In this document: positions 2,037-50,496 of the stretch, in pieces | How the letters are laid out: every line of letters begins with the position of its first letter | How positions within the stretch are numbered: position 1 is the first letter of the stretch | NCBI GenBank assembly: GCA_934201705.1 | Contig: CAKPXF010000005.1 | Span: 25,291-89,290 of the forward strand | Direction of reading: 5' to 3' | Origin: an uncultured Bacilli bacterium | GTDB taxonomy: Bacteria; Bacillota_I; Bacilli_A; RFN20; CAG-631 | DNA: 64,000 bases | Notes under the pieces: model-generated | The model's database searches: none | What the model was told of the DNA's origin: nothing | Seen by the model: the letters and a program-made list of their open reading frames with translations, nothing else | Position numbers and translations under genes: made by a program

Positions 2037-4118
2037 ATGAAAAATAATAGCAATACAAAACCAATAACAGATTTAAGAAACACGAATGAAATTTCAAAGC
2101 AGTGTCACGATTTAAATGAGCCAATATTTATTACTAAAAATGGATATGATGATTTAGTAATAATGGCTAGTGATACCTATAAGGAAATAGTAAAAGCCAA
2201 TCAAATTCAACTACCAAAGACTAGTAGTTACCATAATATGGTTCGGGTGGCTTGTGCAACAAATGAAATAAAGGTGGCAAATCCATCCTTTAATGTTAAA
2301 GAAATATGCAAAATCATTGATTCGATAAAAAATGAGGACATTGATATTTTAGTATTTCCCGAGCTTTCACTTACAGGCTACACATGTGGTGATTTATTCT
2401 ATCAGCACACATTATTAAACGAAACTTTAAAAGCATTAAATGAATTAGTACAATATACTAAAAATATTAATACGCTTTTATTTGTTGGAGCGCCATTATT
2501 ATTTCAATATAAACTTTATAATTGTGCTATTGCTATTAGCAATGGTAAAATATTAGGCGTTGTCCCAAAAAGCAATTTACCTAATTATAATGAATTTTAT
2601 GAGGCTAGACAATTTAATGAATGGCATAATGAAAATAGTGAAATAGAAATTAATGGAATTTTATATCCTTTTGGTACAAAATTATTATTTTCTAATTTAT
2701 ATTTAAGGAATCTTAAAGTAGCTTGTGAAATATGTGAAGACCTATGGGCAGCTAAAACTCCTTCAACTAATCATGCTTTAGCTGGTGCTAATATTATTGT
2801 TAATCTTTCTGCATCAAATGAGTTATTTGGCAAGGATAAAATTAGAAAAATATTAGTTCAATCAACTTCGTCACGCTTAGCTTGTGCTTATGTTTATGCA
2901 TCATCTGGTAATGGCGAATCAACTCAAGATTTAGTTTATTCATCGCACAATATTATTGCTGAAAATGGGGTTATTTTAAAAGAATCTAAAACATTTGAAA
3001 ATGAATTAATAATTTCTGATATAGATTTAGATATACTAATTTCAACACGCTGTAAAAATTCCTCATTTAGAAACATAAATGCTTCATCCTATAAAACAAT
3101 ATATTTTGAAAAAGAAATAACAAAAAGAAATTTAAAAAGATTTATTAACCCTTATCCTTTCTTGCCACTAGAAGATGAAAAAAAAGAATATGTTGAAGGC
3201 ACTATTACCTTACAAGTAATGGGGCTTGCAAAACGTTTGAAACATATAAATTGTAAAAATGTTGTGTTAGGCTTATCTGGTGGGCTTGATTCAACATTGG
3301 CATTAATTGTATGTTATGAAACATTTAAATATTTAAAGCTTGATACTAAGGGCATTCATTGTTTAACTATGCCATGCTTTGGTACATCATCACGTACTTA
3401 TAATAATGCATTAAAGCTTTCCTCATTGTTTAATACTTCATTAAAAGAAATCAGAATAAATGAAGCAGTTAAAATTCATTTAAACGATATTGGCCATGAT
3501 TTAAAAACTGATGATGTAACTTTTGAAAATGCTCAAGCACGTGAAAGAACACAAATATTATTTGACTATGCGAATAAAATAAATGGTATTGTTATTGGGA
3601 CTGGTGATTTATCCGAATTAGCTCTTGGATGGTGTACATTTAATGGTGACCATATGGCTAATTATTGCCTTAACTCTTCTATTAGTAAAACGCTTGTAAA
3701 ATATTTAGTAAAAGAATATGCAAATAACAATAAAAAAGTTAAAGATGTTTTAGACGACGTTCTTGATACCCCTATATCTCCAGAATTAAAAATTAATCAA
3801 AATGATAATATTAATCAAAAAACTGAAGATACAATTGGCCCTTACGATTTACATGACTTTTTCTTGTATTATTTATTAAAATATAATTTTTCTATAAGCA
3901 AAATATATTATTATGCAATTAATGCATTTAAAGGAAAATTTAATGAGAAGGAAATTAAAAAATGGTTAAATTTATTTGTTAAGCGTTTCTTTACACAGCA
4001 ATTTAAGCGTTCAACGATTCCAGATGGTCCAAAAGTAAGTGAAATATCGCTTTCTCCACGCGGTGACTTAAGGATGCCAAGTGATGCTTCGTACATTGAT
4101 TTCTTACTTGATAATTAA
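2037..4118 (+). CDS. nadE: glutamine-dependent NAD+ synthetase with an in-frame ~67-aa Phd/YefM-like N-terminal extension
   Basis: CN-hydrolase triad context: VFPELSLTGY, VVPKSNLPNYNEFYE, KVACEICEDLW. NAD-synthase P-loop GLSGGLDS. GAGG RBS lies 8 nt before ATG 2037. N-terminus ITDLRNTNEISKQCHDLNEPIFITKNGYDDLVIMASDTYKEI resembles Phd/YefM antitoxins. Confidence 0.9.
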   Translation: MKNNSNTKPITDLRNTNEISKQCHDLNEPIFITKNGYDDLVIMASDTYKEIVKANQIQLPKTSSYHNMVRVACATNEIKVANPSFNVKEICKIIDSIKNEDIDILVFPELSLTGYTCGDLFYQHTLLNETLKALNELVQYTKNINTLLFVGAPLLFQYKLYNCAIAISNGKILGVVPKSNLPNYNEFYEARQFNEWHNENSEIEINGILYPFGTKLLFSNLYLRNLKVACEICEDLWAAKTPSTNHALAGANIIVNLSASNELFGKDKIRKILVQSTSSRLACAYVYASSGNGESTQDLVYSSHNIIAENGVILKESKTFENELIISDIDLDILISTRCKNSSFRNINASSYKTIYFEKEITKRNLKRFINPYPFLPLEDEKKEYVEGTITLQVMGLAKRLKHINCKNVVLGLSGGLDSTLALIVCYETFKYLKLDTKGIHCLTMPCFGTSSRTYNNALKLSSLFNTSLKEIRINEAVKIHLNDIGHDLKTDDVTFENAQARERTQILFDYANKINGIVIGTGDLSELALGWCTFNGDHMANYCLNSSISKTLVKYLVKEYANNNKKVKDVLDDVLDTPISPELKINQNDNINQKTEDTIGPYDLHDFFLYYLLKYNFSISKIYYYAINAFKGKFNEKEIKKWLNLFVKRFFTQQFKRSTIPDGPKVSEISLSPRGDLRMPSDASYIDFLLDN

Positions 4119-4247
4119 TTTAGGCACTTAAAATACAAATAATTATGAAGAAATCTTAAAATTTGTCACAAACAACTTGTTTATTTTAAAATCACTTTTA
4201 TAATACTTGTCTTTTAAAATGTAGTGCTACAAAGCTACTTTAAGTAA

Positions 4248-4501
4248 TATTCAAGGTGTAGATTAAATAATGAATCTACATCTTTTTTTGATAGATAAGC
4301 ATTAGATAATTTTCGTAAGGCAAGTTTCTTTTGAATCTATTTTAATGTAGATGTATTAGTAGCTCCATTAATATATGAACCATCCTTACAATGTGTAATA
4401 TTGTATGTCCTCATAAATTCAATTAATTGAGAGGCAAAAATATCATCTTCAAATAATTTTATTTCAACTAATCGTAATACAGTAAATGCTAAATAGCAAA
4501 T
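4248..4501. repeat. 254-bp direct repeat, copy 1 (pairs with 6944-7197)
   Basis: Base-by-base comparison shows equal length and only 2 mismatches that I can find (4264 t/c, 4479 a/g). It contains the hairpin terminator and the 3' end of a transposase-like reading frame. Confidence 0.9.
4257..4289 (+). terminator. rho-independent terminator-like hairpin (copy 1, inside the 254-bp repeat)
   Basis: TGTAGATT-aaataatg-AATCTACA followed by TCTTTTTTT. Confidence 0.6.
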
Positions 4502-4650
4502 AAAAAAATGACCATAGATTGTTTCTTGAAGTCTTACAAATATAGGATGAGCATCTAGGGAAAGAGTGAAAGCATTAATGGTATTAATCTTTATACTTAC
4601 TATGGAAACAATCCAGTTACGTAAAATTAAAGGCCCAAATAAAAAATTTT
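4337..4650 (-). pseudogene. C-terminal fragment of a DDE (IS4/IS1634-like) transposase, 5'-truncated
   Basis: The minus frame reads ...NTINAFTLSLDAHPIFVRLQETIYGHFFICYLAFTVLRLVEIKLFEDDIFASQLIEFMRTYNITHCKDGSYINGATNTSTLK*. The block (R/H)P-I-F...I-x-GHF-x-ICYLA...L-R-L-x-E resembles the conserved C-terminal block of IS4-superfamily transposases. No start codon or N-terminal domain is present. Confidence 0.5.
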
Positions 4651-4867
4651 AAATTTACCTAATTTGCTTGCTATATGAATTAAATTTTGTAATTTTATTG
4701 AAATAAAATCTTATATTTAGTAAAATATAAGTGAAATTAAACAACCTTGATAGTTTTTATAAATTGCCTAAGGATTTAATAAAATAACAACACTACTCTC
4801 TTTAGGTAAAACTATAAGGAGTTTTTTGTTTATATTTCATACAATGTTATAAGGAGGCATTAATCAT

Positions 4868-5266
4868 ATGTTTAAAAACAAAACAATTAAATTATTTTTA
4901 ATGTTAGGTGTGATTCTTTTTAGCCTCATTGGAGTTGTTGGATGTAATAATCCATCAGTAAGTGTTAATGTAAATGCTACATATATTAGAACTCATTTTG
5001 AAGATGATGAGGGGAATGGTAAATTTACTATTGTGAATAATCACATTGATTTGGTATCACTATTAGAAAATGATACTCCTGAAAAATATAACGAAGACTT
5101 TTTTGAAACAAAATCTCTTCTATTTTTTAAAATAGTTGAATCAAGTAGTGGAAACATAAGTGAAATTGAATCCTATGAAATTATAGATAAAACACTTAAT
5201 ATCTATGTAAAAACCAAACAATATGGAGACACTTATGGTATGGGATGTTGGTGGTTTATTTTATAA
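4868..5266 (+). CDS. putative lipoprotein. Probably the N-terminal part of a gene broken by an in-frame TAA (same frame as 5330..5779)
   Basis: Signal peptide plus lipobox MFKNKTIKLFLMLGVILFSLIGVVGC. AGGAGG RBS upstream. The frame stays open across 5267-5329 (LSKEDVEKFDNVKIFKNGEKI). Confidence 0.6.
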   Translation: MFKNKTIKLFLMLGVILFSLIGVVGCNNPSVSVNVNATYIRTHFEDDEGNGKFTIVNNHIDLVSLLENDTPEKYNEDFFETKSLLFFKIVESSSGNISEIESYEIIDKTLNIYVKTKQYGDTYGMGCWWFIL

Positions 5267-5329
5267 TTAAGTAAAGAAGATGTTGAAAAGTTTGATAATG
5301 TTAAAATATTCAAAAATGGTGAAAAAATT

Positions 5330-5779
5330 ATGGATGAAAATAGATTAACAATCTTACCTAAAATGTACTATATGGATGTAATTGACATGAGTTCAAGCAT
5401 GACTTTTAATTGTGAAAAACCTAATTATGGTTATGTTTCCTTAAATAGAACAAGCAGTTATATTTATGATTTTAATAACGAGCAAGTATACGAGTTAGTC
5501 TCAGCATTTAATAATATTCCAATTTTTCATGCTGAAACTATTACAAAAAGGGAAGAATTAGATAAATTAAAGATAAATGGGATTATGATTGAAGTTTCAT
5601 ATAGATATATCAATCGTAATAATTGCAACAATGATGCAATAGTTCATTTTTACATTTTAGAAAATGGAATGTTATTGTTTGAAGATAATAGAAAAATTAA
5701 TTTATATTATTCAGACATTGGTATCATTAATTATGATGAAATAAAAAATCAAATTATTCAAATAGGAGATCGAATATAA
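5330..5779 (+). CDS. hypothetical protein. Probably the C-terminal part of the 4868 gene
   Basis: Same reading frame as 4868..5266 (both are 2 mod 3), separated from it by a single TAA at 5264-5266. No convincing RBS of its own. Confidence 0.5.
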   Translation: MDENRLTILPKMYYMDVIDMSSSMTFNCEKPNYGYVSLNRTSSYIYDFNNEQVYELVSAFNNIPIFHAETITKREELDKLKINGIMIEVSYRYINRNNCNNDAIVHFYILENGMLLFEDNRKINLYYSDIGIINYDEIKNQIIQIGDRI

Positions 5780-5801
5780 TGAAAAAAGTAATATCTTTTC
5801 T

Positions 5802-6218
5802 TTGGTATTGTTTGGATTAAACACTAGTGTAAGTGCTTTTTCATACAACTATGACAATAGTGATAACAATATGGTTTTTGAAATTAAAACTATTCAAAAA
5901 CAAAAATCTAAAATGGGTTTAAATAGTAGTTGGTCTTATAGTTCTTCTAGCTTTTATTCATTACAATCTAGGGCCACTTCATTAAGTTATGTATATACTC
6001 CGAGAGGTACTCAAGTAGAGGTATATATAAGAGATGAAATGCCTACTTATGCAATAAATATTTGTAATCAAAATGGAGATACATTAGTCCCAGAAGCAAC
6101 ACGAATAGCTCCAAGCAGTTCTAAATACAATTGTCACTCCTATGCTTGGTATATGCAATCAACTTCTAATCCTTATTGGATGAATGATCCTTCAAGTTAT
6201 TATACTGATTGGAGTTAA
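5802..6218 (+). pseudogene. secreted protein, N-terminal fragment (frameshifted signal peptide; ends at an in-frame TAA)
   Basis: ATG 5780 (MKKVISF...) is 22 nt, so out of frame, upstream of the 5802 frame, which continues ...VLFGLNTSVSAFS (the rest of a signal peptide). Ends ...NCHSYAWYMQSTSNPYWMNDPSSYYTDWS*. Confidence 0.6.
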
Positions 6219-37785: not shown

Positions 37786-39135
37786 ATGCTTAAACGAAAA
37801 ATATTTGATGAATTAGTTAAATGGAAAAATAATACGTTAACTAAAAAGAAAGCTTTAGTAATAAAAGGATTAAGACAAATTGGAAAAACATTTATTGTTA
37901 AGCAGTTTGCTAATGAGTATTACGAAAACCAGATATACATTAACTTTAAAAACAATGATGATATAAAAGCAGTATTTGAAGAAAATTTAAATGTTGATAG
38001 AATATTAATAGATTTATCAGCTAAAATGCCAAATATTAAAATAATTCCTTACAAAACAATAATTATTTTTGATGAAATTCAAGAATGTGCCAATGCAAGA
38101 GCTTCAATAAAGCCATTTGTTGAAGATGGTAGATTTGACATTATAGCAACTGGATCACTTCTTAAAATAAAAGGGTATAATAGAAAAAAAGGAAAAGGCG
38201 TGCCAACAGGCTTTGAGCGCATAATATATATGCATCCACTTGATTTTGAAGAATTTTTATGGGCAAAGGGTGTAGGTGATAATGTTATTTCTTATTTAAA
38301 GCAATGCTTTGAAGAGAAAAAGCAAGTCTCTAAAGCAACACATGAAGCTATGATAAGATACTTTAAAGAATATATTTGTGTTGGTGGATTACCTGAGACT
38401 GTTAATACATTCATTAATACAAATGATATGAATGAAGTATACAAGGAACAAAGAGATATAATTGAAGAATATAAAGATGATTTTGGAAAGCACTTAGATA
38501 AAAATGAAAATGAGGAAGTTGATGAATTATTACTTGCAAGAATAGAAGAAGTATTTGATTCTATACCAAGTCAGCTTGCTAAGGAAAATAAAAAATTTCA
38601 ATATTCAAAAATAAAGGTTAAAGGAAGAAGTGCAGATTATAGAGAAGCTATACAGTGGTTAGTTGATGCTGGCATCATTTCTCAATGCTTTAATCTTTCA
38701 AATTTAACTCTTCCACTTGAAGGAAATAAAATTGATAATATATTTAAAATTTATATGTCTGACAGTGGATTATTTGTATCAATGCTAGAAAAAGGAACTG
38801 CAGGAGAAATATTATCTGGAAATCTTTATGGCTATAAAGGTGCTATATTTGAAAATATCATTGCTGATGCTTTTTCAAAAATGGGAAGAAAATTATATTA
38901 TTTTCATAAGGATTCTGGATTAGAAGTAGATTTTATAACAAAATACAAAGGTGAAGTAACTTTAATTGAAGTAAAAGCAACAAACGGAAATACAAAATCA
39001 TCAAATATAATACTTGATAATTATAATGAATATCATGTTAAGAAAATCATTAAATTTGGTGAATATAATATAGGTGAAACTAATTCTAAACTAACTCTTC
39101 CTTATTATATGGTTTTTTTATTAAATGAATATTAA
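37786..39135 (+). CDS. AAA-family ATPase with DUF4143-type C-terminal region (AAA_14/DUF4143 architecture)
   Basis: Walker A GLRQIGKTF and Walker B IIIFDEIQ. The conserved tail EVDFI...IEVK is typical of this family. Paralog of 57773..59107. Confidence 0.75.
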   Translation: MLKRKIFDELVKWKNNTLTKKKALVIKGLRQIGKTFIVKQFANEYYENQIYINFKNNDDIKAVFEENLNVDRILIDLSAKMPNIKIIPYKTIIIFDEIQECANARASIKPFVEDGRFDIIATGSLLKIKGYNRKKGKGVPTGFERIIYMHPLDFEEFLWAKGVGDNVISYLKQCFEEKKQVSKATHEAMIRYFKEYICVGGLPETVNTFINTNDMNEVYKEQRDIIEEYKDDFGKHLDKNENEEVDELLLARIEEVFDSIPSQLAKENKKFQYSKIKVKGRSADYREAIQWLVDAGIISQCFNLSNLTLPLEGNKIDNIFKIYMSDSGLFVSMLEKGTAGEILSGNLYGYKGAIFENIIADAFSKMGRKLYYFHKDSGLEVDFITKYKGEVTLIEVKATNGNTKSSNIILDNYNEYHVKKIIKFGEYNIGETNSKLTLPYYMVFLLNEY

Positions 39136-39181: not shown

Positions 39182-40228
39182 TTAATTATTTCTTTTATCG
39201 ATATAGTAACCTATAACATAAAATATATTAAAGATAAATGATGAAATTGCCGATATTATTTGTGATATATTAGAAGATATAAATAATAGGATTAAAGAAA
39301 TTATAACTATAACAGTTTGAATTGTAGCATATATTCCTACGAATTTAGATAATGAACCAGGCTTATTTAAGTATTTAAATACTCCACCAATTCCAGCTAG
39401 TAATTCAATAATTATTGAAACTACTAAAAATATTGTTGTAAATATTTTAACATTTATAGTATAGTCTCCTATTATTAATGTATAAATGAAATATAAATTA
39501 TAAAATGCTAAGAATATAAAGGCAAAAGAAGAAATTAAAAACAAGTGCTTACCAATTCTTTTAGTTTTATCTTCATTTTCCCATTTAGTAAATATAGAAG
39601 ATGAAGGTTCATTTACAATAGCATTTTTTAAATCATTTTGGTATATAGCAATATTATTAACAAAGTGTCTAATTTTTAAAGCAAGCTTTATCTGCTCTGA
39701 ATGCTCTAAAAATAGCATATAAACAGCTTCCCAAATAAATACCCAAGCAGCTATATCAATTATTTCTACGACAATATCATTTTTTATTTCATTGCCAAAC
39801 CAATGATTTGCTTGTCCTACGACATTGAAAAACAATAATATGACACCAGCAAGTATTAATATTGCTGAAGTTAATTCTTTTCTTTGGCGTGCCTTACGGG
39901 CTGAATATTGAGATAACTCTAATGTGTCATTAAATGATTCAATTAATTCTTTTGCAGTATAATCTTCAAAATCTAAAATTTGAAAATTAATATTTACTTT
40001 AAAGCCTGAAGGAGCATTATCAATAATATTATTAATTTTTTCAAAAACCTCATTATTGAATAAAGGATGATTTAAATTAGTAAAATTAGTAATTAATATA
40101 TCACTTGCTTTTTCATACTTTAGCATTACATCAAGCGTTTTATTATCTTCGTCAACATTATAATATTTTTTTATAAGCTCCATTTGACGAAAGGATTGTT
40201 CAAAATTAATTTGATATTTTTTCTTCAT
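39182..40228 (-). CDS. membrane protein, unknown function
   Basis: Best start is ATG 40228 (GAGGGAAAG RBS). Soluble ~130-aa N-terminal domain, then about 6 TM helices. Confidence 0.5.
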   Translation of the reverse strand: MKKKYQINFEQSFRQMELIKKYYNVDEDNKTLDVMLKYEKASDILITNFTNLNHPLFNNEVFEKINNIIDNAPSGFKVNINFQILDFEDYTAKELIESFNDTLELSQYSARKARQRKELTSAILILAGVILLFFNVVGQANHWFGNEIKNDIVVEIIDIAAWVFIWEAVYMLFLEHSEQIKLALKIRHFVNNIAIYQNDLKNAIVNEPSSSIFTKWENEDKTKRIGKHLFLISSFAFIFLAFYNLYFIYTLIIGDYTINVKIFTTIFLVVSIIIELLAGIGGVFKYLNKPGSLSKFVGIYATIQTVIVIISLILLFISSNISQIISAISSFIFNIFYVIGYYIDKRNN

Positions 40229-40412
40229 ATTCTTTCCCTCATAACAAAAATATATTAGCATAGATTATTTTTAAATAAAATAAAAATTTAGCGAATTTTT
40301 ACACATTTTGAAAGCTTGTTACTATAATATAATTGATAGGCTTAATATTCTTTACTCCAAAACCCTACACATTTATCAATCCAATTATTTATCACAAAAG
40401 GAATAGTCTATC

Positions 40413-40457
40413 AAAAAAGCAGGTTAGAAATTATAATTTTCACTAGCCTGCTTTTTA
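40413..40457. terminator. rho-independent terminator downstream of the kinase gene (possibly bidirectional)
   Basis: A6-GCAGGTTAG...CTAGCCTGC-T5. 10-bp stem with one G-U pair. Confidence 0.65.
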
Positions 40458-40530
40458 TTTTTATTACAAAACTATTTTTAGTCAATAATATGAATGATTG
40501 TCATTATCTTTTAATGCATATGGCTTACTC

Positions 40531-41826
40531 CTATTTGCAGCTACTAACAAATACAGCTGCCCCTAAAGCTGCTTCTTCTTGACTTGATGACATTTGTATT
40601 TTTTGCTTAAAGGTTTTACTAAAGCAATCCTGTAAAAATACATTTTTTCTTAAGCCATTACCAGAGCCAATAAAATTCATTTTTTCTTGATGGTCTTTTC
40701 CATATAGCATATACATATCATATAGTTCATTAGCCATACCATACATTAAAGAATAAATTATATGTAATGGTGTAAAATTATCTACAGAAATATTTGTTAT
40801 TGAGGCCTTTAAAGTAGGCTTTTCTCTTGTGCCTTGAAATAAAGGAGTAAATGTTGGTAAATTATTTGGAGCTTCATTATCTTTAAGTAATGATGACATT
40901 TCATCATAAACATTATCTTTATCAACATTAAACATTAAAGCGCATTTTTGAAAAAATCCTTCTAAAATTGCATATGATCTTCCACCACATAATGGTGCTC
41001 CTACTAATAAATAGCCCTCTTGAGGAAATGGACGAGTTTCTAAGCCTTCACACACCTTATATTTTTTTGTATAAATTGAAATTTGGCTACCTGTTCCAAC
41101 ATTTGCCAAAATTGAATTAACATTTCCTAAAGTTGCTCCTATAAAGCTTGCTTGATTATCACCAATTGCTGGATAAACATTAATATTTCTATATTTTCCA
41201 ATGGCTATTGAATCAACGACCTTAGGAAGAAATGTTAAAGAAATTCCAACCATTTCTATTATTTTTTTATCAAATTGTTTTTTTTCAACATCAAACATAC
41301 CAAAGCTTGCAGCATCACTTGCATCAACTAATGGTTCTTTATTGTTTGCTAAAACCATAGCAATATAATCATGAATTGTTGAAAATACTGCTGCATCATT
41401 AGGAATTAAATTATTAACCATATTGTAAAAATGAGTAACAAGACCAAAGCCTGTTGCACATTTATAGTTAGTTTTATTTTTTAAATATTCAGCATATGTT
41501 AAATTATCCTTATATATAAGGTTTCCTCTACCATCCTGCCAAATATAAAGAGGGCTTACTGGGTTTCCATTTTTATTTAAGTATAAAATACCATGCATTT
41601 GACCAGTAATACCAATTCTTTCAACATCAGGATATTTATTTAATAATTCATCAACAATACTTAAGGAAATTTCTTTGATTTTTAATGGCGATTGAATTCT
41701 TTCAAAAGTATTTGAAGTTTTAATAAATGAAGTATTATCCTTTGTAATGCTTTCAATAACTTTTTTATTTTCTGAAACCACAGCACAAATTGTTGTTGTG
41801 CCAATATCAAGTCCTAAGGTTTTCAT
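40531..41826 (-). CDS. FGGY-family carbohydrate kinase
   Basis: ATG 41826 follows GAGGTG, which overlaps the GRE stop codon. N-terminus LGLDIGTTTICAVV, then GITGQMHGILYL and IWQDGRG blocks. Confidence 0.7.
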   Translation of the reverse strand: MKTLGLDIGTTTICAVVSENKKVIESITKDNTSFIKTSNTFERIQSPLKIKEISLSIVDELLNKYPDVERIGITGQMHGILYLNKNGNPVSPLYIWQDGRGNLIYKDNLTYAEYLKNKTNYKCATGFGLVTHFYNMVNNLIPNDAAVFSTIHDYIAMVLANNKEPLVDASDAASFGMFDVEKKQFDKKIIEMVGISLTFLPKVVDSIAIGKYRNINVYPAIGDNQASFIGATLGNVNSILANVGTGSQISIYTKKYKVCEGLETRPFPQEGYLLVGAPLCGGRSYAILEGFFQKCALMFNVDKDNVYDEMSSLLKDNEAPNNLPTFTPLFQGTREKPTLKASITNISVDNFTPLHIIYSLMYGMANELYDMYMLYGKDHQEKMNFIGSGNGLRKNVFLQDCFSKTFKQKIQMSSSQEEAALGAAVFVSSCK

Positions 41827-41834
41827 TATACACC

Positions 41835-44210
41835 TCAGCAAAAAGTAGAATTAGGATCTAAACGCAAGATTATATCCTTTTGAATTTCTGGACTTAAATC
41901 TAAGAAATTAACAAATGTTCCGTGAATTCTCATAATGTATACGCCATTAGGAGCGTATTTTTTAGGATTAGCTAAAACCTTCTTTAATGTTTCAGCTGTA
42001 GTTACGTTAACATATAAATAGAATGGTGCTCTACTTTTATTTTCGCTATTAAAGAATAAAGGCTTAATAACTCTATTATAAAATTCAATACACTTTTCTT
42101 CATAAGTGTCTTTAGTAAAATATTTTGGATCTATTCCAAAGTGTGAAGCACAGCCACCATTCATTTTACAAAATGGCAATTTCATAGTTGATAATGTTCT
42201 AAAGCCTAAGCCATTTCCAGCTGTTGAAAATAATGGATCTATTCCATAGCCTAATTGCTCGCGAGCCCCTCTTCCATCTGGAGTAGCACCAACCCAATAG
42301 CCATAAGTTAAATGCGTTGAAGGTGAGCTCCAATCTGGATTGAATGGATTACCTAAATAATTTTTAAGTGATAGCACTATATCAGAAACTATATTTACAA
42401 TATTAGCTGCTTCATCATCAACTTCAGGAATGTTATTTCCAAATTTTGGACAGCTCTTTAAGTATTCTTGTAATTCCTCATAGCCTTTAAAGTTAGCTTT
42501 ACAAGCTTCAATTAGATTTTTAGCATCATTTGGTCTTTCCTTTAATAAATGATCTATAGCGATAAATGAATCAGCTACAACTGATAAGCCATGAATTAAG
42601 CAACCACTACCATTATATTTAGTACCTTGCTCGTTAGTATCTCTTACATCAATTGCACTATCAATTCCACCTTCAAAGCATGAAAGGAATGGAACTGGAA
42701 GTAATGATAAGGCTTTTGATGCTAAGTTTGCTGCATCGGCCATTTTTTTACAAAACCATTTTAAGTTATTATAAAACAATTCACGAATATTTTTTAATAT
42801 ATACATTGGTTCATAATTAGTTTGTGGTCCAATTTCTTCATTAGTAATAAATGATTTTCCGCCACTTAAAGTTAGTTCAAGAACCTTACCCATGTTTAAC
42901 CAGCTATTAGTTGTATTAGCATTTTCCTTCCCCATGATTAATGGTTCTTGGCAACCAGCAACAGAATAATCAGCTAAGTCATCTTCATCTATACCTTTTT
43001 CTTTTAATGTTTCAAATAAAGAATCATCATTAAAGATTGATGGAGTTAAGCATCCTGGAGTAAAGAAGAAGCGACCTAACTCACTATATAATTTTTCAGG
43101 TGTATTTTTATGAAGCTTTACTGATAAAATAGGTTGAGGTAAATTCATATCATAATAAGCATCTAATATTGCATATGACATTTCATTAGTTAAATCATTA
43201 TTATATTTATCTTTGCCACTAATTAAAACATTTTGTGATATAGCCCAGCTTCTTTCACCTACATTGAAAAACACTAAGAAATGCTTAAATAATGCAGCTG
43301 CTTCTTTTCTTGATAGATTATCATGCTTCCTATATGGTTCAAACACTCTATCAATATTACCAACTGAAAAAGCAAATGGATTTGGCGATTGCTCAATACA
43401 CATAACCTGCCATAATAATAAATATGCTTGCATTGCTTCATATAATGTTGATGCTCCATTATATGGAACATTGTTTAATGTTTCAATAATTAATGCTAAT
43501 TCATTTTGTCTTATATCATCCTTAGAAGGAAGCTGCTCTAAAGCTATTTTTTGATATCTTTTAGCAAGCTTTAAGCAACAATTTAATGACTTTTTCATAG
43601 CTATTAAATTGTTTTGCTTTTTTTCATTTAATTCTTCTTTTTCAAGTCTTTCATCAATTCTTGTAATTAAGCCTTTAATACCGTACTTTAAAGCATATCT
43701 AAAATCCGGAATCATATGACCAGTTACTTGTTCAATAAAGAAAGCAACCTCACCAGTATATTCTTCATATTTTCCATAAACCTCATTTAAGGCTTTAACA
43801 TATGGTGATTTTGAAGCTGCATCCCGTTGCTTTTTAATTCTTTCTTCATCTACATCTTTAGTAGGAGTGGCATAATCATATACTTCAAGGGGATCACAAT
43901 ATCCCTTAAATGTTTCAACCTTAAAAGCGGGATTAATAAGCGCATAGCTTGCTGCAAAGGCATCGCGTTGTGTGCCAACAAAGATTTGATTATCACTAAT
44001 ACTAAGAGGTAGCTTTTCTATTACCTCTTCAAGTTCTAAAGAAGCTTTAATTTCTAAATTTGTTTCTTTAGTTTTTAAATCAAAGTCCGTAACAATTTCT
44101 TTTGATAAAAACCAGCCATTTAAAACCTTATGGCTTTCTCTTTCTTCTTTATATAAAGCTTTTGCTTTAGTTGTTAATTCTATATCATTATAAATATCAA
44201 ATACTTTCAT
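41835..44210 (-). CDS. glycyl radical enzyme, PFL2/dehydratase-lyase (Cys-x-Glu) class, unknown substrate
   Basis: 791 aa. Thiyl loop SVAGCQEP (Cys codon at 42953..42951, residue 420). C-terminal glycyl-radical domain NGVYIMRIHGTFVNFLDLSPEIQKDIILR (Gly764 at 41921..41919). Confidence 0.85.
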   Translation of the reverse strand: MKVFDIYNDIELTTKAKALYKEERESHKVLNGWFLSKEIVTDFDLKTKETNLEIKASLELEEVIEKLPLSISDNQIFVGTQRDAFAASYALINPAFKVETFKGYCDPLEVYDYATPTKDVDEERIKKQRDAASKSPYVKALNEVYGKYEEYTGEVAFFIEQVTGHMIPDFRYALKYGIKGLITRIDERLEKEELNEKKQNNLIAMKKSLNCCLKLAKRYQKIALEQLPSKDDIRQNELALIIETLNNVPYNGASTLYEAMQAYLLLWQVMCIEQSPNPFAFSVGNIDRVFEPYRKHDNLSRKEAAALFKHFLVFFNVGERSWAISQNVLISGKDKYNNDLTNEMSYAILDAYYDMNLPQPILSVKLHKNTPEKLYSELGRFFFTPGCLTPSIFNDDSLFETLKEKGIDEDDLADYSVAGCQEPLIMGKENANTTNSWLNMGKVLELTLSGGKSFITNEEIGPQTNYEPMYILKNIRELFYNNLKWFCKKMADAANLASKALSLLPVPFLSCFEGGIDSAIDVRDTNEQGTKYNGSGCLIHGLSVVADSFIAIDHLLKERPNDAKNLIEACKANFKGYEELQEYLKSCPKFGNNIPEVDDEAANIVNIVSDIVLSLKNYLGNPFNPDWSSPSTHLTYGYWVGATPDGRGAREQLGYGIDPLFSTAGNGLGFRTLSTMKLPFCKMNGGCASHFGIDPKYFTKDTYEEKCIEFYNRVIKPLFFNSENKSRAPFYLYVNVTTAETLKKVLANPKKYAPNGVYIMRIHGTFVNFLDLSPEIQKDIILRLDPNSTFC

Positions 44211-44223
44211 ATTTTTCCTCCAT

Positions 44224-44946
44224 CTATGTATTAATTACTTTAATATTGCTATCTTCTAAAATCTTTTTAAAATTTAAGACATCATCATTTGTTATTCTTG
44301 CTTTTTCATCCATTTTATAAACAAGCCCAAGCTTTTGATACTTGCTTATTCCAAATTCATGATACTTTAAAAGCTCAATTGTTATTTTGTCATTAATCTT
44401 TAAATTTTCAAAACACTTAACAAAATTTTTAGCATCAATAGGTGAACTATTAAAGCCTCCAATAAGTGGTATCCTTAATAATAATGGCTTATTACTTTTT
44501 ATTCTACTTACGGCATTTTTTAAAGTGCTTTCATTAGATAAGCCCGTGACTTTTTTATGAATCACTGGATTATAATGCTTTATATCCATTATTAATAAAT
44601 CAAGGTAAGGAAATAATTCACTTAGCCTATCACTTATCCCATTAGTTTCAATACAAGTATTTATGTTATTTTCCTTAAGCTTAATTAAAGCTTCCTTTAA
44701 TTCATCAAATTGGATAGTTGCTTCCCCACCAGTAAAAGTAACACCTCCATTATCAAACATCATAGCTTTACTTCTTAATACTTCTAAAACTATTTCATCA
44801 ACAGTATATTCTTTTCCATTTTTAAAAGAAAAGCCTTCTGGATTTGAGCACCATGGGCAACGCAAATTACAGCCACACAAATGATAAACTAGTCTATTTC
44901 CAGGACCATCTTGTGAAAAATTAAAGCCTTTTTGAAATATTACCAT
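44224..44946 (-). CDS. glycyl-radical enzyme activating protein (radical SAM, PflA-size)
   Basis: CX3CX2C motif CNLRCPWC, and GGVTFTGGEA SAM-binding block. 240 aa, so it lacks the extra ferredoxin-like insert. Confidence 0.85.
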   Translation of the reverse strand: MVIFQKGFNFSQDGPGNRLVYHLCGCNLRCPWCSNPEGFSFKNGKEYTVDEIVLEVLRSKAMMFDNGGVTFTGGEATIQFDELKEALIKLKENNINTCIETNGISDRLSELFPYLDLLIMDIKHYNPVIHKKVTGLSNESTLKNAVSRIKSNKPLLLRIPLIGGFNSSPIDAKNFVKCFENLKINDKITIELLKYHEFGISKYQKLGLVYKMDEKARITNDDVLNFKKILEDSNIKVINT

Positions 44947-45235
44947 ATTAATATATCCTTTCTAGATATCATTTTTTCTAGTATCTATATATTAACATCA
45001 CACTTTAATTATGTCAAGTGGATTGACATTAATTGCCTTTAGCAAATTTTTTTGTTAATTCTTTTAGTGGATGATTTATTTTAGAGGTATTTCTTATTAG
45101 AAATAAATTAACAATTCACTAAAATATCATCTGATTATGCCTATAAATGGACATTTGACAATAGCAAAATTATATTATAGAATAAAATTATTATTTGAAG
45201 AATAATGAATTTTTAATATATAGGAGGAAAAATGT

Positions 45236-46279
45236 ATGAACTTTGATTTACCTATTTTCTTCAAAAGAAATAGAGTTTTTAGAGTATATAAGGGTGGAAT
45301 GCTATTTAATGATTTACTAGGTGATATTAAAGAAGATGGAAATTATCCAGAGGAATGGATTTGCTCAAATGTACACGCCATTAATGATGGACATGATGAT
45401 CCACTTGAAGGTATATCTATTAGTGAAGATGGTATTCCTTTTTCTACACTTATTAATGAAAACAAAAAGGAAATGCTTGGAAATAGAGACAATTTAGGGG
45501 TCCTTGTTAAATACTTAGATAGCGCTATAAGGCTTCCTATGCAGGTTCACCCATCAAGGGATTTTTCAAGAAAATATTTCAATAGTAATTATGGTAAAGC
45601 AGAAGCTTGGTTAATTTTAGCAACAAGAGAAAACGCTTGCTTATATTTAGGCTTCAGTAAAAAAATAACAAAGGAAGAATTTTCAAAAGCAGTTGATGAA
45701 AGTGAAAAAAATCCTGATATAATGACTAATTTTGTCAATAAAATTCCAGTAAAACCTGGCGATGTTTATTTTGTTAATGCTCGTGTGATTCATGCAATTG
45801 GTGCTGGTTGTCTAATACTTGAAATTCAAGAGCCAACTGACTTTACTATTCAACCAGAATATTATTGTGGTGATTATCGCTTAAATGATAAAGAAATGTA
45901 TTTAGGATTAGGTAAAGACGTTGCATTATCATGCTTTGATTACAGCTTATATGGAAAAGATGTTGTTAAAAATGCTCATAAAGAGCCAAAGATTATTAGT
46001 AATGATAATAATGTCCTTGTTGAATCATTAATTTCATCTTCTGATACAACATGCTTTGAAATGACAAGATATACAATTAAAAATAGTAGCTATCTTCTTG
46101 AAGATAAAGCAGCAATTTATATTGTAGTAGATGGAGAAGGCACAATTACATCTAAAAACTATGAAAGAAAGATTAAAAAAGGTGATTATTTCTTTTTACC
46201 ATATAATGCTTCTATGAAGAATTATGTTAATAGCACTACTAGCATTACATTAGTATGCTGTAAGGGTGGAAAAGAATAA
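45236..46279 (+). CDS. class I mannose-6-phosphate isomerase family protein (cupin)
   Basis: Metal/active-site blocks MQVHPS, GKAEAWLIL and VIHAIGAG. AGGAGG RBS. Confidence 0.7.
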   Translation: MNFDLPIFFKRNRVFRVYKGGMLFNDLLGDIKEDGNYPEEWICSNVHAINDGHDDPLEGISISEDGIPFSTLINENKKEMLGNRDNLGVLVKYLDSAIRLPMQVHPSRDFSRKYFNSNYGKAEAWLILATRENACLYLGFSKKITKEEFSKAVDESEKNPDIMTNFVNKIPVKPGDVYFVNARVIHAIGAGCLILEIQEPTDFTIQPEYYCGDYRLNDKEMYLGLGKDVALSCFDYSLYGKDVVKNAHKEPKIISNDNNVLVESLISSSDTTCFEMTRYTIKNSSYLLEDKAAIYIVVDGEGTITSKNYERKIKKGDYFFLPYNASMKNYVNSTTSITLVCCKGGKE

Positions 46280-46290
46280 AGGAGAGACAT

Positions 46291-47418
46291 ATGGCAACAC
46301 GTGCTAGAAATTCTGAATATACAAAAGAATACAATCGAAATAATTTTATTCGAATTTTACGCAATAAATCATTATCGCGCTCTGAACTCGCAAGAAAACT
46401 TGGCCTTACAAGATCAGCCGCTTCTTTAATAGTTGATGAATTAATTAATGATGGTTTTATTTTAAAGGAAGAAAATAAAAAGCCAATGGGAAGAGTTTCT
46501 CTTCCTTTAATGCTTAATTCAAGTAGAATATATTCAATTGGCGTTTTTCTTACAAGAAAAAGCTGTAGAATTGGTATTGTTGATCTTTGTGGAAATGTTG
46601 TATCTAGTAAAAATATAACATGTAATAAGCCAGAAGACTTAGATGCATTATCTTCAGCCATCAACGAATTAATCGATAAAAAAAATATTAATCGTAATAG
46701 TATTGTTGGCGTTGGCATTTCAGCTCCAGGTCCTCTTGATGGTGAAAGTGGTCAGTTGTTTAATCCTCCAGGATTTGAAGCTTTCCATCATGTACAAATT
46801 ACAAATATATTAAAAGAAAAATTAAACCTTCCTGTTTATTTAGCAAATGATGCTGTAAGCTTAGCTCAATATAATTTAGGAAAAAAAGAAGCCAATAATA
46901 GTGAAAATTTCTTACTACTTCTTGTAAATGAAGGAATAGGTAGTGGAGTCGTAATAAGAGGCAAAGTATTAAAAGGCCAAGGCTATTTTACAGGTGAGCT
47001 TGGCCATACTTCAATTAATTATAATGGTAAAAAGTGTATTTGTGGAAATAGGGGTTGCCTTGAAGCCTATGCTTCAATAACAAATTTACTTGAAGGAACA
47101 AATTATTCTTCTTGGAAGGAAGTAATGAATAATTATTTAACATCTTCTTTAGCAAAAGAACTAGTTAATAAAGAAGTTGAATACTTATCTATAGGTATTG
47201 TTAATCTTATTAATCTAATTTCTGTTGACACTATTTTATTAGCTGGTGATCTTTTATACAAAGCAAATATTTTTGCTTCACTTCTTGAAGAAAATATTAA
47301 TAAAATATATTTAAGAAGAGATGCAATAAATATAAAGGTTTTACCATCATGTGAAGGTGAAAATATACCTTTATGTGCTGCTGCTGACATTGCCTTTAAT
47401 GCATTCTTAAGTGTATAG
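46291..47418 (+). CDS. ROK family transcriptional regulator (N-terminal wHTH plus ROK sugar-binding domain)
   Basis: HTH LSRSELARKLGLTRSAASLIVDELI. ROK zinc motif GELGH...CICGNRGCLE. Confidence 0.85.
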   Translation: MATRARNSEYTKEYNRNNFIRILRNKSLSRSELARKLGLTRSAASLIVDELINDGFILKEENKKPMGRVSLPLMLNSSRIYSIGVFLTRKSCRIGIVDLCGNVVSSKNITCNKPEDLDALSSAINELIDKKNINRNSIVGVGISAPGPLDGESGQLFNPPGFEAFHHVQITNILKEKLNLPVYLANDAVSLAQYNLGKKEANNSENFLLLLVNEGIGSGVVIRGKVLKGQGYFTGELGHTSINYNGKKCICGNRGCLEAYASITNLLEGTNYSSWKEVMNNYLTSSLAKELVNKEVEYLSIGIVNLINLISVDTILLAGDLLYKANIFASLLEENINKIYLRRDAINIKVLPSCEGENIPLCAAADIAFNAFLSV

Positions 47419-47440
47419 ACTCAAAAAAATCAAATATTGA

Positions 47441-47749
47441 TTAGTTAATATTTGATTTTTTTATTATATTTTTAGTTTTTTGAATTATTTTTTGGCATTT
47501 TGAAAGTGATAATTTCAATTGTATAGCCATATCAATTAAATCTTTTTCAGTTGGTCTTCCATTACCATTTATGGTCATTTCGTGTTCTATTTTATCTTTT
47601 GTCTTTGTTAAATCATATGCAGGTGATAATTTATAGCTTTTAAGCTATTCCTCATATTGAAATGCTATTTTGTTATCATCAATTATTACTAAATATCCAA
47701 CGATTCTGCTATTATACTTAACAGTTTATTTTAAAATCTTTTCAATCAT
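47441..47749 (-). pseudogene. hipA-like kinase toxin remnant (early stop, large internal deletion)
   Basis: ATG 47749 overlaps the hipB-like stop (ATGA). It reads MIEKILK*, then TVKYNSRIVGYLVIIDDNKIAFQYEE* (HipA N-terminal-like), then ...KLSPAYDLTKTKDKIEHEMTINGNGRPTEKDLIDMAIQLKLSLSKCQKII (HipA C-terminal-like). Confidence 0.6.
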
Positions 47750-49509: not shown

Positions 49510-50496
49510 ATGGCAGAATTTGAAGCAAAAAAATTAACAATACTTAGAATACTTGATATATTAAAGGAATATAGCGATTATTATCATCCTTTAAAGCATG
49601 AAGATATTATTAACTATTTATCAAGCCTTTATGATATTGATATTGATAGAAAAACAGTTGGAAGAAATATTACTTATTTAAAGGATGCTGGATATGAAAT
49701 AACATCAACTAGAAAAGGAAGCTATTTAGAGGTTCGTGATTTTGATGATAGTGAATTACATATGCTAATTGATGGTGTTTTAAGTAGTAAATATATAACT
49801 GCTACCCATTCAAAGGATTTAATTGAAAGAATATGTAATTTATCAAACAAATATTTTAAAGCCAGCGTTAAGCATATTTATTCTGTTAATGAATGGTCGA
49901 AAACTGATAATCAGGATGTCTTTTATAATATTGAATTAATTGATGAAGCTATTGAAAAGAAATGCCAAATTGCATATGAATATAATAAGTATGGCATTGA
50001 CAAAAAATTACATAAATCATCATATCAATATGTAAGCCCTTATCAAATGATACTTCATAATCAGCATTATTATTTAATGGCTTATAGTGAATATTGGAAA
50101 AACATTGTTTTCCATCGCTTAGATCATATAAGTAATATGGTTATTAAAGAAGATAAAAACGCCACTTCATTAAGAAGTATAAAAGGCTATGAAAATGGTA
50201 TTGATTATAAGCAATTTTCACAATCAATGCCTTATATGTTTGCAGATAAAATTGAAACAATTTATTTTGATGCTAATATTTCAATTATTGATCAAATAAT
50301 AGATTGGTTTGGTAATGATATAAAAATAAACAAAGATGAAAATGATGAAAAGCTTATTCATGTTGAAGTTAAAGCTAGTCAAACTGCTATGTATTATTGG
50401 GCTATTCAATATGTTAATTATGTTAAAGTAACATATCCTACTGCCTTGAAAGAAAAAATCAAAGAAAGCTTAATAAAAGCAATAGAAAAGTATTAA
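49510..50496 (+). CDS. WYL-domain transcriptional regulator (wHTH-WYL-WCX architecture)
   Basis: N-terminal wHTH LTILRILDILKEYSD...DRKTVGRNITYLKDAGYEI. WYL core PYQMILHNQHYYLMAYSEYWKNIVFHRLDHI. Confidence 0.8.
   Translation: MAEFEAKKLTILRILDILKEYSDYYHPLKHEDIINYLSSLYDIDIDRKTVGRNITYLKDAGYEITSTRKGSYLEVRDFDDSELHMLIDGVLSSKYITATHSKDLIERICNLSNKYFKASVKHIYSVNEWSKTDNQDVFYNIELIDEAIEKKCQIAYEYNKYGIDKKLHKSSYQYVSPYQMILHNQHYYLMAYSEYWKNIVFHRLDHISNMVIKEDKNATSLRSIKGYENGIDYKQFSQSMPYMFADKIETIYFDANISIIDQIIDWFGNDIKINKDENDEKLIHVEVKASQTAMYYWAIQYVNYVKVTYPTALKEKIKESLIKAIEKY

Follow-up and report, generated by a model that had tools for sequence, protein, structure and literature searches.

Closest described systems

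Glycyl radical enzymes (GREs) are among the most abundant 'dark' enzymes of the gut microbiome, and each clade to which a function has been assigned (CutC, HypD, IslA, YbiW/PflD) has revealed a new flux of nutrients or metabolites. The described enzymes nearest in setting to the one reported here are YbiW and PflD, the GRE 'isomerases' of anhydroglycolysis, which convert 1,5-anhydroglucitol-6-phosphate and 1,5-anhydromannitol-6-phosphate to 1-deoxy-fructose-6-phosphate (PMC13450708, section 5.7). In E. coli, pflD is located among phosphotransferase system (PTS) genes and beside fsaB and gldA, while ybiW is located beside fsaA. We analysed a GRE locus in a 64,000-nucleotide stretch of DNA from an uncultured Bacilli bacterium (contig CAKPXF010000005.1, positions 25,291 to 89,290; AT-rich, G+C content approximately 26%), referred to here as the window. 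This locus encodes the GRE and its radical SAM activating enzyme (activase) together with an FGGY-family carbohydrate kinase and, divergently, a phosphomannose-isomerase-like (PMI-like) cupin and a ROK-family regulator. Judged from sequence, the GRE belongs to an orphan clade that is wired to a sugar kinase and falls outside every characterised class in score, identity, activase architecture and linked genes.

An earlier note on this DNA had described the same five open reading frames (ORFs) in the same arrangement, and all were found at the coordinates listed below. The note had considered the locus surprising on the ground that no characterised GRE class is paired with carbohydrate genes. 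This premise is outdated, as YbiW and PflD have been known since 2024 to act on anhydrohexitol 6-phosphates and their genes lie beside PTS, fsaA, fsaB and gldA genes. The locus is therefore less surprising than it had appeared.

An orphan glycyl radical enzyme clade

The GRE and its two catalytic motifs are located as follows.

41835..44210, minus strand: GRE, 791 aa; Pfam PFL-like domain (PF02901), E=4.5e-114
42927..42959, minus strand: Cys loop A418-G-C420-Q-E422-P-L-I-M-G-K428 of the GRE, with the predicted thiyl-radical Cys and general-base Glu
41904..41930, minus strand: glycyl radical motif R761-I-H-G764-T-F-V-N-F769 of the GRE, aligning with RVAGYSA of glycerol dehydratase (GD), PflD and YbiW

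The PF02901 match spans residues 40 to 637, and GREs of the Protein Data Bank (PDB) align over residues 47 to 784. A C-x-E motif on the Cys loop defines GRE eliminases and isomerases (PMC13450708, sections 5.6-5.7). The loop of the window enzyme reads A-G-C420-Q-E422, with this motif present and a Cys-Cys dyad absent, which bears out the earlier assignment of an eliminase- or isomerase-type loop without the dyad of pyruvate formate-lyase (PFL). PFL was rejected as an identity for the enzyme on the missing dyad and on a score of 72 bits against the 994-bit cut-off of TIGR01255. The broad PFL2/glycerol-dehydratase subfamily model TIGR01774 gave 261 bits against a cut-off of 678, and the NCBIfam equivalogs for HpfG, HypD, the PflD type, HpsG, CutC, indoleacetate decarboxylase, PFL and HPAD gave 45-197 bits against cut-offs of approximately 1000-1150. 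The best PDB matches were GD (1r8w, 208 bits), PFL2 (2f3o, 193 bits), PflD (142 bits) and YbiW (102 bits). Direct alignment gave 26% identity with E. coli PflD and 23% with YbiW, and identity to solved GREs was about 30% or less. For the eliminase and isomerase classes the equivalog scores were 151-197 bits, with cut-offs of 1000-1109. Neither score nor identity placed the enzyme in GD, propanediol dehydratase (PD), HypD, HpfG, HpsG, CutC, IslA/IseG, YbiW, PflD or HplG, and none of the characterised GREs in a June 2026 review of the superfamily (PMC13450708) corresponds to this clade. On these comparisons the GRE is a member of an uncharacterised clade of the PFL-like superfamily (IPR004184). 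The earlier note had named high identity to, and clustering with, a characterised class as a finding that would speak against its view; scores and identities gave the opposite result.

The classical glycyl radical fingerprint is R-[IVT]-[CSA]-G-[YW], also written R-V-x-G-[FWY]. The motif of the window GRE, R-I-H-G-T-F, departs from it in its His-Gly pair and gave no match to PF01228 (Gly_radical); in alignments, Gly764 falls on the radical Gly of GD, PflD and YbiW. GrcA models of NCBIfam match residues 730-783. We also considered an aminoacyl radical enzyme, defined by replacement of the radical Gly with Ala, Ser or Thr (PMC11528403), and rejected it because Gly764 is retained and invariant.

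More than 120 clusters at the 90% identity level, all of about 791 aa, were 72-96% identical to the window GRE, and the only one with a name is a 'hypothetical protein'. Exhaustive searching of 1.84 billion 50%-identity representatives returned only three full-length clusters at 46% identity or above. These were followed by five more distant full-length representatives, comprising four sister clades at 32-34% and the degenerate P0248 at 38%, and then by a generic GRE background at 30% identity or less and approximately 230 bits. Among species-representative genomes the family was present in 52 loci, all from metagenome-assembled genomes (MAGs), with hosts in Bacilli, Oscillospiraceae, Lachnospiraceae, Acutalibacteraceae, Treponemataceae, Tannerellaceae, Symbiothrix and Propionivibrio. 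The family was present in human gut samples (from Hadza and from a study of fibre intervention), in guts of ruminants and termites, and in MAGs from anaerobic digesters. Full-length members from four phyla (n=44) shared at least 57% identity with the window GRE, and 208 of 791 residues were invariant, including the entire Cys loop AGCQEPLIMGK and the radical motif RIHGTFVNFLDLS. Spread across four phyla at this level of identity suggests horizontal transfer of a useful trait. A clade at 60% identity contains the cultured human gut bacterium Claveliimonas bilis (WP_316268084.1, BDZ84500.1; identified by cluster look-up), which makes the clade directly tractable.

The C-Q-E sequence was found in only seven of the 92 nearest full-length representatives, and the same seven carry R-[IV]-H-G. 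These seven correspond to the family and the four sister clades, and they also share a loop E-Q-x-P-N-P-[FY]-A-F-S, an 11-residue deletion giving W-A-[IV]-S-Q-N, and the motif [ST]-P-S-T-H. Because C-Q-E and R-[IV]-H-G strictly co-vary, the pattern suggests that Gln421 and His763 interact where the Cys and Gly loops meet. The clade is distinguished by this C-Q-E/His-Gly signature, a minimal activase, near-universal coupling to a kinase, spread across phyla and a cultured carrier, and it poses the question of whether a His beside the radical Gly, with an activase lacking auxiliary clusters, changes how the radical is installed. The 746-aa representative P0248 (locus L062; 38% identity) lacks the catalytic Cys, reading V-G-D-E-L-P there and R-V-P-G-A at the radical site, and probably derives from the clade as a degenerate or non-radical form.

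Coupling to a carbohydrate kinase

The other features of the locus are as follows.

40531..41826, minus strand: FGGY-family carbohydrate kinase, 431 aa from the ATG at 41826; FGGY_N match, 9.1e-26
44224..44946, minus strand: GRE-activating radical SAM enzyme, 240 aa; Radical_SAM and Fer4_12 matches
44848-44871, minus strand: activase motif CNLRCPWC (CX3CX2C)
44947..45235, no strand: divergent intergenic region, 289 bp, presumed to hold both promoters and the ROK operator
45236..46279, plus strand: class-I PMI-like cupin, 347 aa; MPI_cupin_dom match, 9.8e-8
46291..47418, plus strand: ROK-family transcriptional regulator, 375 aa; ROK match, 1e-42, over residues 87-368
46354-46479, plus strand: N-terminal winged helix-turn-helix (HTH) of the ROK protein, approximately residues 22-63; HTH_24/MarR match

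The kinase ATG (41826) lies 8 nt beyond the TGA of the GRE gene (41835-41837), and a GAGGTG sequence overlaps this stop codon. The ORF list places the kinase start at TTG 41841; ATG 41826 is the most plausible start. By sequence, the activase, GRE and FGGY kinase genes make up one translationally coupled operon, and the genes for the PMI-like isomerase and the repressor-type ROK regulator diverge from it.

To count these genes at other loci, the window proteins were compared by tblastn with loci from 52 species-representative genomes; the last three counts refer to loci flanked by 3 kb of sequence or more on each side (n=34).

Activase, immediately upstream of the GRE: 48/48 loci
Family-type FGGY kinase, downstream of the GRE, often overlapping or within 30 nt: 42/45 loci
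PMI-like gene, anywhere in the locus: 17/34 loci
ROK gene, anywhere in the locus: 14/34 loci
PMI or ROK gene, anywhere in the locus: 21/34 loci

The five-gene arrangement is not due to chance. The co-conservation that the earlier note had anticipated held in nearly full measure for the kinase, and for only about half of the loci in the case of the PMI-like and ROK genes; a lack of co-conservation, the result that the note had said would count against it, was not obtained. Loci with a PMI-like gene have it in one of two places, divergent from the operon as in the window or directly after the kinase as its fourth gene.

When the family kinase was absent, another sugar kinase was found. In locus L026, a ROK kinase, a GmhA-like SIS isomerase and a D-lyxose isomerase replace the FGGY and PMI proteins; C. 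bilis has a XylB-like FGGY protein of 498 aa (typed by BLAST) with only 24% identity to the window kinase; and in an Atribacteria clade a 502-aa FGGY protein adjoins a CUT1 ABC transporter. This indicates that the kinase step is intrinsic to the module, and the sequences imply that xylulokinase-like enzymes were recruited more than once.

The window kinase scored 23.6 bits (5.2e-5) with FGGY_C, just under the 27-bit Pfam cut-off, and members of its family carry both FGGY_N and FGGY_C. Its best NCBIfam match was XylB at 115 bits against a cut-off of 380, so that no named specificity was reached, and a search for FGGY homologs returned no informative names, only 'hypothetical protein'. The family profile matched PDB entries for gluconate kinase (3gbt, 113 bits), GlpK (approximately 100 bits) and XylB (91 bits), and FucK weakly; it is nearest to kinases of terminal hydroxyls (GntK, GlpK, XylB), with FucK and RhaB, which are C1 ketose kinases, far removed. 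By these scores the kinase represents a dedicated, unnamed FGGY subfamily.

The PMI-like protein resembles class-I PMI (B. subtilis, 1qwr) in its cupin fold and putative metal ligands, and matched this structure with 59 bits as a single sequence and 104 bits as a family profile. All 21 orthologs compared keep the putative Zn ligands Q103, H105, E123 and H186, which lie in segments that align with 1qwr. It differs from class-I PMI in scoring below the manA cut-off (TIGR00218, 78.8 bits against 116.2) and in being replaced at some loci by a D-lyxose isomerase or a GmhA-like SIS protein. The regulator shares a ROK domain and winged HTH with the NagC and Mlc types, whereas its scores with these nearest NCBIfam models (130 and 117 bits, respectively) were far below the cut-offs.

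Comparison with described enzymes

In its mode of action the window GRE would come closest to the eliminase/isomerase group and, judged by context, to YbiW/PflD. It shares with these two enzymes the PFL-like GRE architecture, a C-x-E Cys loop, a conserved His, a setting among genes for carbohydrate uptake and catabolism, and occurrence in gut anaerobes, and a ketyl radical with cleavage of the adjacent C-O bond would be the most plausible template for its chemistry. It differs from them in carrying C-Q-E and R-I-H-G in place of C-V/I-E and R-V-A-G-Y, in the 11-residue deletion of the 'WA-ISQN' loop, and in the low identities and PDB scores given above. Its activase has no ferredoxin domain, whereas PflC and YbiY are approximately 290-300 aa in length, and the family loci have an FGGY kinase in place of a PTS and no linked fructose-6-phosphate aldolase (FSA).

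The top solved relative is the B12-independent GD of Clostridium butyricum (1r8w/1r9d), in which Cys433, Glu435 and His164 match Cys420, Glu422 and His165 of the window GRE. However, the score of this match is low, and His281, Ser282 and Asp447 of GD, which we take to be its glycerol-binding residues, are replaced by Phe279, Ala280 and Thr434 in segments that are invariant or nearly so in the family. The pocket positions that could be mapped by alignment hold polar, uncharged residues. The window locus also has another type of activase and lacks the 1,3-propanediol pathway and bacterial microcompartment (BMC) context. No BMC shell homolog was detected in the 64-kb window by tblastn (PduA query, E<=10) and no BMC Pfam family among the annotated neighbors, nor was there an aldehyde dehydrogenase or sulfite-handling gene among ORFs of at least 150 aa scanned over 32-54 kb of the window, in agreement with the earlier note. 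PTS, aldehyde dehydrogenase and sulfite-handling genes were likewise not seen among the annotated neighbors at main-family loci. The second-best solved relative, PFL2 of Archaeoglobus fulgidus (2f3o), is itself an orphan eliminase-like GRE, but it shares none of the signature motifs and offers no functional transfer.

Activase architecture also sets the clade apart. The vast majority of GRE-activating enzymes have a ferredoxin-like domain with eight Cys, and the activases of PFL and of the class III ribonucleotide reductase (RNR) have a radical SAM domain only (PMC13450708, section 2.1). The window activase consists of the radical SAM domain alone, and the CxxCxxC motif was absent from it and from every activase partnered with a family GRE. 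Since the auxiliary domain is near-general outside the PFL and class III RNR activases, an eliminase-type GRE with a ferredoxin-less partner is unusual. The likeness is to PflA, which also has the radical SAM domain alone and about 240 aa, and the PFLA model TIGR02493 was the best NCBIfam match of the window activase. It was nonetheless below the cut-off (175 bits against 232), and the partner enzyme is of the eliminase type, not a PFL. Some family activases differ further from PflA. A long form of approximately 290 aa (L024, L031, L033, L043, L047) keeps a 49-residue insert at the usual position of the ferredoxin domain, with only four Cys (C-P-x-G-A ... C-x-x-C-x-x-x-x-C). The sister clades P0252 and P0259 keep ferredoxin-type activases. 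Compared by sequence, the two activase forms of the family look like a stepwise loss of the auxiliary Fe-S domain.

Genomic neighborhoods of the family

The sporadic neighbors of the module are consistently carbohydrate or polyol genes with a mannose or fructose flavor, and point to mannose-, fructose- or polyol-type substrates. This fits the proposal, made earlier from the window alone, that the substrate is a sugar, anhydro-sugar or alditol. A Tannerellaceae locus has four glycoside hydrolase (GH) family 32 genes and an MFS transporter around the operon, and another GH32 gene is present in L029. GH92 was found in L035 (with a clustering-based homolog in L039), GH38 in L026 and in sister clade P0261, and GH172/DUF2961 in L039; GH78 was also among the neighbors. 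Locus L032 contains a gene of the mannitol/arabinitol dehydrogenase family, a psicose-epimerase-like gene and two MFS transporters. D-lyxose/mannose isomerase and fructokinase-like PfkB genes were found in some loci and mutarotase in six, and other neighbors included GDSL esterases, PF12831 flavoproteins, and SSF and ABC transporters. In sister clade P0252, a bona fide XylB (513 bits against the 380-bit cut-off) and a sugar ABC transporter adjoin the GRE.

In the C. bilis-type locus (L067/L068), the 60%-identical GRE lies in a polyol-type cluster with the order Zn-dependent alcohol dehydrogenase (ADH), SDR, CUT2 ABC transporter, ROK, XylB-like FGGY, activase, GRE and GntR; on the other side are a divergent Fe-ADH and an MFS transporter. 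One genome of this type has an insertion sequence (DDE_Tnp_1) between the ROK and kinase genes.

Proposed function and alternative explanations

We consider it probable that the enzyme is a C-O-cleaving GRE that acts on a sugar or polyol and is functionally coupled to the kinase. A fuller reading, over which we are evenly divided, takes the locus as a self-contained module by which a neutral carbohydrate resembling a sugar alcohol is catabolised anaerobically: the GRE would cleave a C-O bond of the free sugar or polyol and the kinase would act afterwards. This model of C-O cleavage followed by kinase capture is the best supported because of the polar, uncharged pocket positions, the type of kinase and the mannose, fructose and polyol context. 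It is also favored by the homology of the GRE over its full length and by conservation of its catalytic Gly, its Cys-x-Glu loop and the counterpart of GD His164. The Fe-ADH found next to the C. bilis cluster, of the family that includes GldA, recalls the position of gldA beside fsaB-pflD in E. coli. GldA reportedly reduces the hydroxyacetone that is released there (Ma et al., 2024).

The individual steps can be projected, by homology, from the established mechanism of GRE eliminases and isomerases (PMC13450708, sections 5.6-5.7). The activase would install the radical on Gly764, which would pass it to Cys420 as a thiyl radical; Cys420 would then take a hydrogen from a carbinol carbon of the substrate while Glu422 deprotonates the carbinol hydroxyl. 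The resulting ketyl radical would expel the adjacent C-O group, either a ring ether or a hydroxyl, and return of the hydrogen would give a deoxy-keto sugar. From context, the substrate would resemble a hexose or polyol and belong to the mannose, fructose or alditol type. First among the candidates would be 1,5-anhydro-D-mannitol (1,5-AM) and 1,5-anhydro-D-glucitol (1,5-AG), ring-opened to 1-deoxy-fructose, ahead of hexitols or pentitols that would lose water to give a 1-deoxy-ketose. The terminal hydroxyl of the open-chain product would be phosphorylated by the xylulokinase-like FGGY kinase, and the ROK protein would repress both operons until the sugar appears. The whole would be a PTS-independent, kinase-dependent counterpart of the anhydroglycolysis of E. 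coli.

1,5-AM and 1,5-AG lead because the only known sugar GREs act on them (as 6-phosphates), and because they occur in virtually all foods and are carried by SGLT5 along with mannose and fructose. Human SGLT5 transports 1,5-AG, 1,5-AM, mannose and fructose alike (PMC12441222), and this shared transport could explain the dominance of mannose and fructose genes in the neighborhoods. A 1,5-anhydrohexitol as the specific substrate is nevertheless a tentative assignment, and an alditol is rather less likely still.

The PMI-like isomerase is harder to place. The earlier note had proposed that the product of the GRE is phosphorylated and then isomerized into glycolysis. This is chemically awkward, as elimination or isomerization by a GRE leaves a carbonyl beside a new C-H and cannot yield mannose, fructose or their phosphates; the deoxy-keto sugar so formed is no substrate for a PMI. 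It is more likely that the PMI, or the D-lyxose isomerase or GmhA-like SIS protein that replaces it, acts upstream of the GRE or in parallel, for example by funnelling manno-configured sugars. The isomerase would thus feed in co-occurring sugars of the mannose type and would not act on the GRE product.

Several points weigh against the model of C-O cleavage and kinase capture. The GRE is only 23-26% identical to YbiW/PflD and scores higher against glycerol dehydratase. A tblastn search of the window and approximately 60 loci with FsaA and FsaB of E. coli gave no FSA or transaldolase-type aldolase, so that if 1-deoxy-fructose-6-phosphate is the product, the enzyme that cleaves it is unlinked. 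The PMI gene that many loci carry within the operon gets no direct chemical role in the scheme, and the kinase may act before or after the GRE. The neighborhoods are heterogeneous: clustering of 651 neighbor ORFs found nothing beyond the five core genes in more than six loci, and no transporter or hydrolase was conserved in more than approximately 10% of loci. An AlphaFold2 model of the GRE from a 36-sequence alignment had a mean pLDDT of 65, with the Cys loop, Gly loop and barrel strands below 50, values too low for an analysis of the active site. Among GRE papers from 2023-2026 none concerned this clade, and the literature search returned no experimental work on a family member. It found no paper that joins 'glycyl radical' with FGGY, and only incidental co-mentions with xylulokinase.

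We weighed these points against other explanations of the locus. The order of steps may be reversed, with the FGGY kinase phosphorylating an imported sugar or polyol and the GRE acting on the phosphate ester, as a functional analog of anhydroglycolysis in which a kinase replaces the PTS. The 6-phosphate substrates of YbiW and PflD are in keeping with this, as is the norm of early phosphorylation in catabolism; the PTS genes that accompany pflD in E. coli were not seen among the annotated genes of these loci, which would make the kinase a substitute, and PMI and GmhA-like SIS proteins belong to families that act on sugar phosphates. However, the kinase profile is nearest to GntK, GlpK and XylB, and to our knowledge FGGY kinases act on open-chain or furanose sugars and polyols, not on pyranose-locked anhydro-alditols. 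The aligned sequences appear to offer no extra conserved Arg or Lys for a phosphate at H165, F279/A280, S325, T434 or S628, and the FSA aldolase of such a pathway is again unlinked. We therefore regard a kinase-first order as unlikely. It is less likely again that the substrate is a modified sugar from which the GRE takes an ether substituent or one that is not oxygen. Examples would be sulfoquinovose or sulfofructose losing its sulfonate, an amino sugar losing its amine, or an O-methyl sugar releasing methanol. In such a pathway, mutarotase, isomerase and kinase would serve as in sulfo-Embden-Meyerhof-Parnas (sulfo-EMP), fucose or rhamnose catabolism, with the GRE in place of the aldolase step. 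The combination of a mutarotase, an aldose-ketose isomerase and a kinase does mirror the sulfoquinovose, fucose and rhamnose pathways, the context of sister clade P0259 (described below) leans the same way, and uroporphyrinogen decarboxylase (URO-D) paralogs recur in L026, L011 and L070. Yet mutarotase was found in only six loci and the kinase profile is far from FucK and RhaB, and the annotated main-family genes include no GH31 sulfoquinovosidase, sulfite reductase or TauE, with a single GH31 gene approximately 6 kb away in L061. The absence of sulfoquinovosidase and sulfite genes among these is the reason for our low rating of sulfoquinovose. Reviews consulted for this hypothesis contained no protein-family information on SqvD. 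The C-S lyases have an Arg and a Gln (PMC13450708, section 5.6.3) where the family apparently has Q161 and H165, a correspondence taken from spacing and not from direct alignment.

A small-diol dehydratase, acting on glycerol or 1,2-propanediol with the FGGY protein as a glycerol-kinase-like partner and the sugar genes incidental, would account for GD and glycerol kinases being the best solved relatives of the GRE and the kinase, and for the retention of the GD His164 equivalent. The substitutions of the three glycerol-binding positions led us to reject a glycerol dehydratase, and the TIGR01774 score, the recurrence of PMI, ROK, glycoside hydrolase and polyol genes, and the lack of a linked BMC shell, aldehyde dehydrogenase or 1,3-propanediol dehydrogenase (among the annotated genes, and by the PduA search) are against the wider class, which we rate as very unlikely. 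That the GRE is dead or a relic is extremely improbable. Its motif, R-I-H-G-T, is off the classical fingerprint and unmatched by PF01228, and the relative P0248 has lost the Cys and carries RVPGA, but RIHGTFVNFLDLS and the Cys loop show no variation over four phyla, along with the other conserved residues counted above, the cognate activase is always adjacent, the GrcA models match the C-terminal region, and the family is abundant in metagenomes.

On the preferred model of C-O cleavage and kinase capture, gut anaerobes probably use the module to degrade a compound that resembles a sugar alcohol. Assignment of the substrate would show how anaerobes lacking a PTS use such a compound, possibly dietary 1,5-anhydroglucitol or 1,5-anhydromannitol or other polyols, and would extend the very recent concept of anhydroglycolysis. 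A broader and more speculative possibility, which we hold to be doubtful, is that the C-Q-E/R-[IV]-H-G superclade represents a new type of GRE reaction on unphosphorylated carbohydrates, and with it a way of fermenting carbohydrates that would be widespread among anaerobes of guts and digesters and had not been seen before. A free alditol or anhydro-sugar may, for example, be dehydrated or ring-opened to a deoxy-ketose that is captured by a xylulokinase-like enzyme, or an otherwise non-hydrolysable sugar ether or glycosidic bond may undergo radical cleavage. Such a route may use the His-flanked glycyl-radical site and the minimal, ferredoxin-less activase.

Additional features of related loci

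The operon of sister clade P0259 (L070/L071; 34% identical) encodes, besides a C-Q-E/R-V-H-G GRE and an activase of the ferredoxin type, a RuBisCO-like protein, a split thiamine pyrophosphate (TPP)/transketolase-like enzyme, SIS, PfkB, URO-D, D-lyxose isomerase, SDR and a TauE-type exporter, and an FGGY kinase and a class II aldolase are encoded upstream. This locus represents an unusual sugar pathway, possibly one for a sulfo- or deoxy-sugar. The URO-D paralogs near GREs number four in L026 (4241-7238 and 11980-13146), one in L011 (13110-14285) and one in L070 (12720-13808). The URO-D superfamily includes methyltransferases; no corrinoid protein was seen among the annotated neighbors of these loci.

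In L007/L008 a second, unrelated GRE (726 aa; best PDB matches GD at 198 bits and PflD at 191 bits), together with its own ferredoxin-type activase, lies at 2937-5917, directly upstream of the main module's ROK gene, placing two orphan GRE systems around one regulatory region. In Oscillospiraceae-type loci (L053-L056, L059-L061) a 218-aa GDSL esterase gene directly follows the kinase in most cases, and these loci also encode two to four PF12831 FAD-oxidoreductase paralogs, a Metallophos or Exo_endo_phos phosphoesterase, and a 1037-aa protein without a Pfam match. These accessory genes may be a clade-specific set for pre-processing an esterified or phosphorylated glycan.

Intergenic region and flanks of the module in the window

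The divergent intergenic region (44947-45235) contains sigma-70-like hexamers at 45155-45183 on the plus strand and 45017-44989 on the minus strand, and imperfect inverted repeats at 44945-44998 and 45176-45220. In a promoter and operator scan of this region, the promoter-like matches were no better than chance given the AT-rich DNA.

The genes around the module are unrelated to it and encode an ABC/FtsX transporter, an adenine deaminase, an AAA_14/DUF4143 ATPase, a WYL protein and methyltransferases. Window positions 40520-47657 were 98% identical to contig L001 of an 'uncultured Bacilli bacterium' MAG, and colinearity ended approximately 11 nt beyond the kinase stop (window 40520; L001 from 11692 onward). 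Past this point L001 and L002 have an aldose 1-epimerase gene, whereas the window has an unrelated 359-aa multi-pass membrane protein (39182-40261) without a Pfam match; window 40262-40530 is thus a strain-level breakpoint relative to L001 at the end of the operon. The module is flanked by the AAA_14/DUF4143 ATPase on one side (37786-39135) and by an HTH_3 protein, a 168-aa ORF and the WYL-domain protein on the other (49510-50496). Relative to the near-identical MAG, approximately 1 kb is missing from the window around 48680, which suggests a variable flank, possibly mobile or of a defence type.

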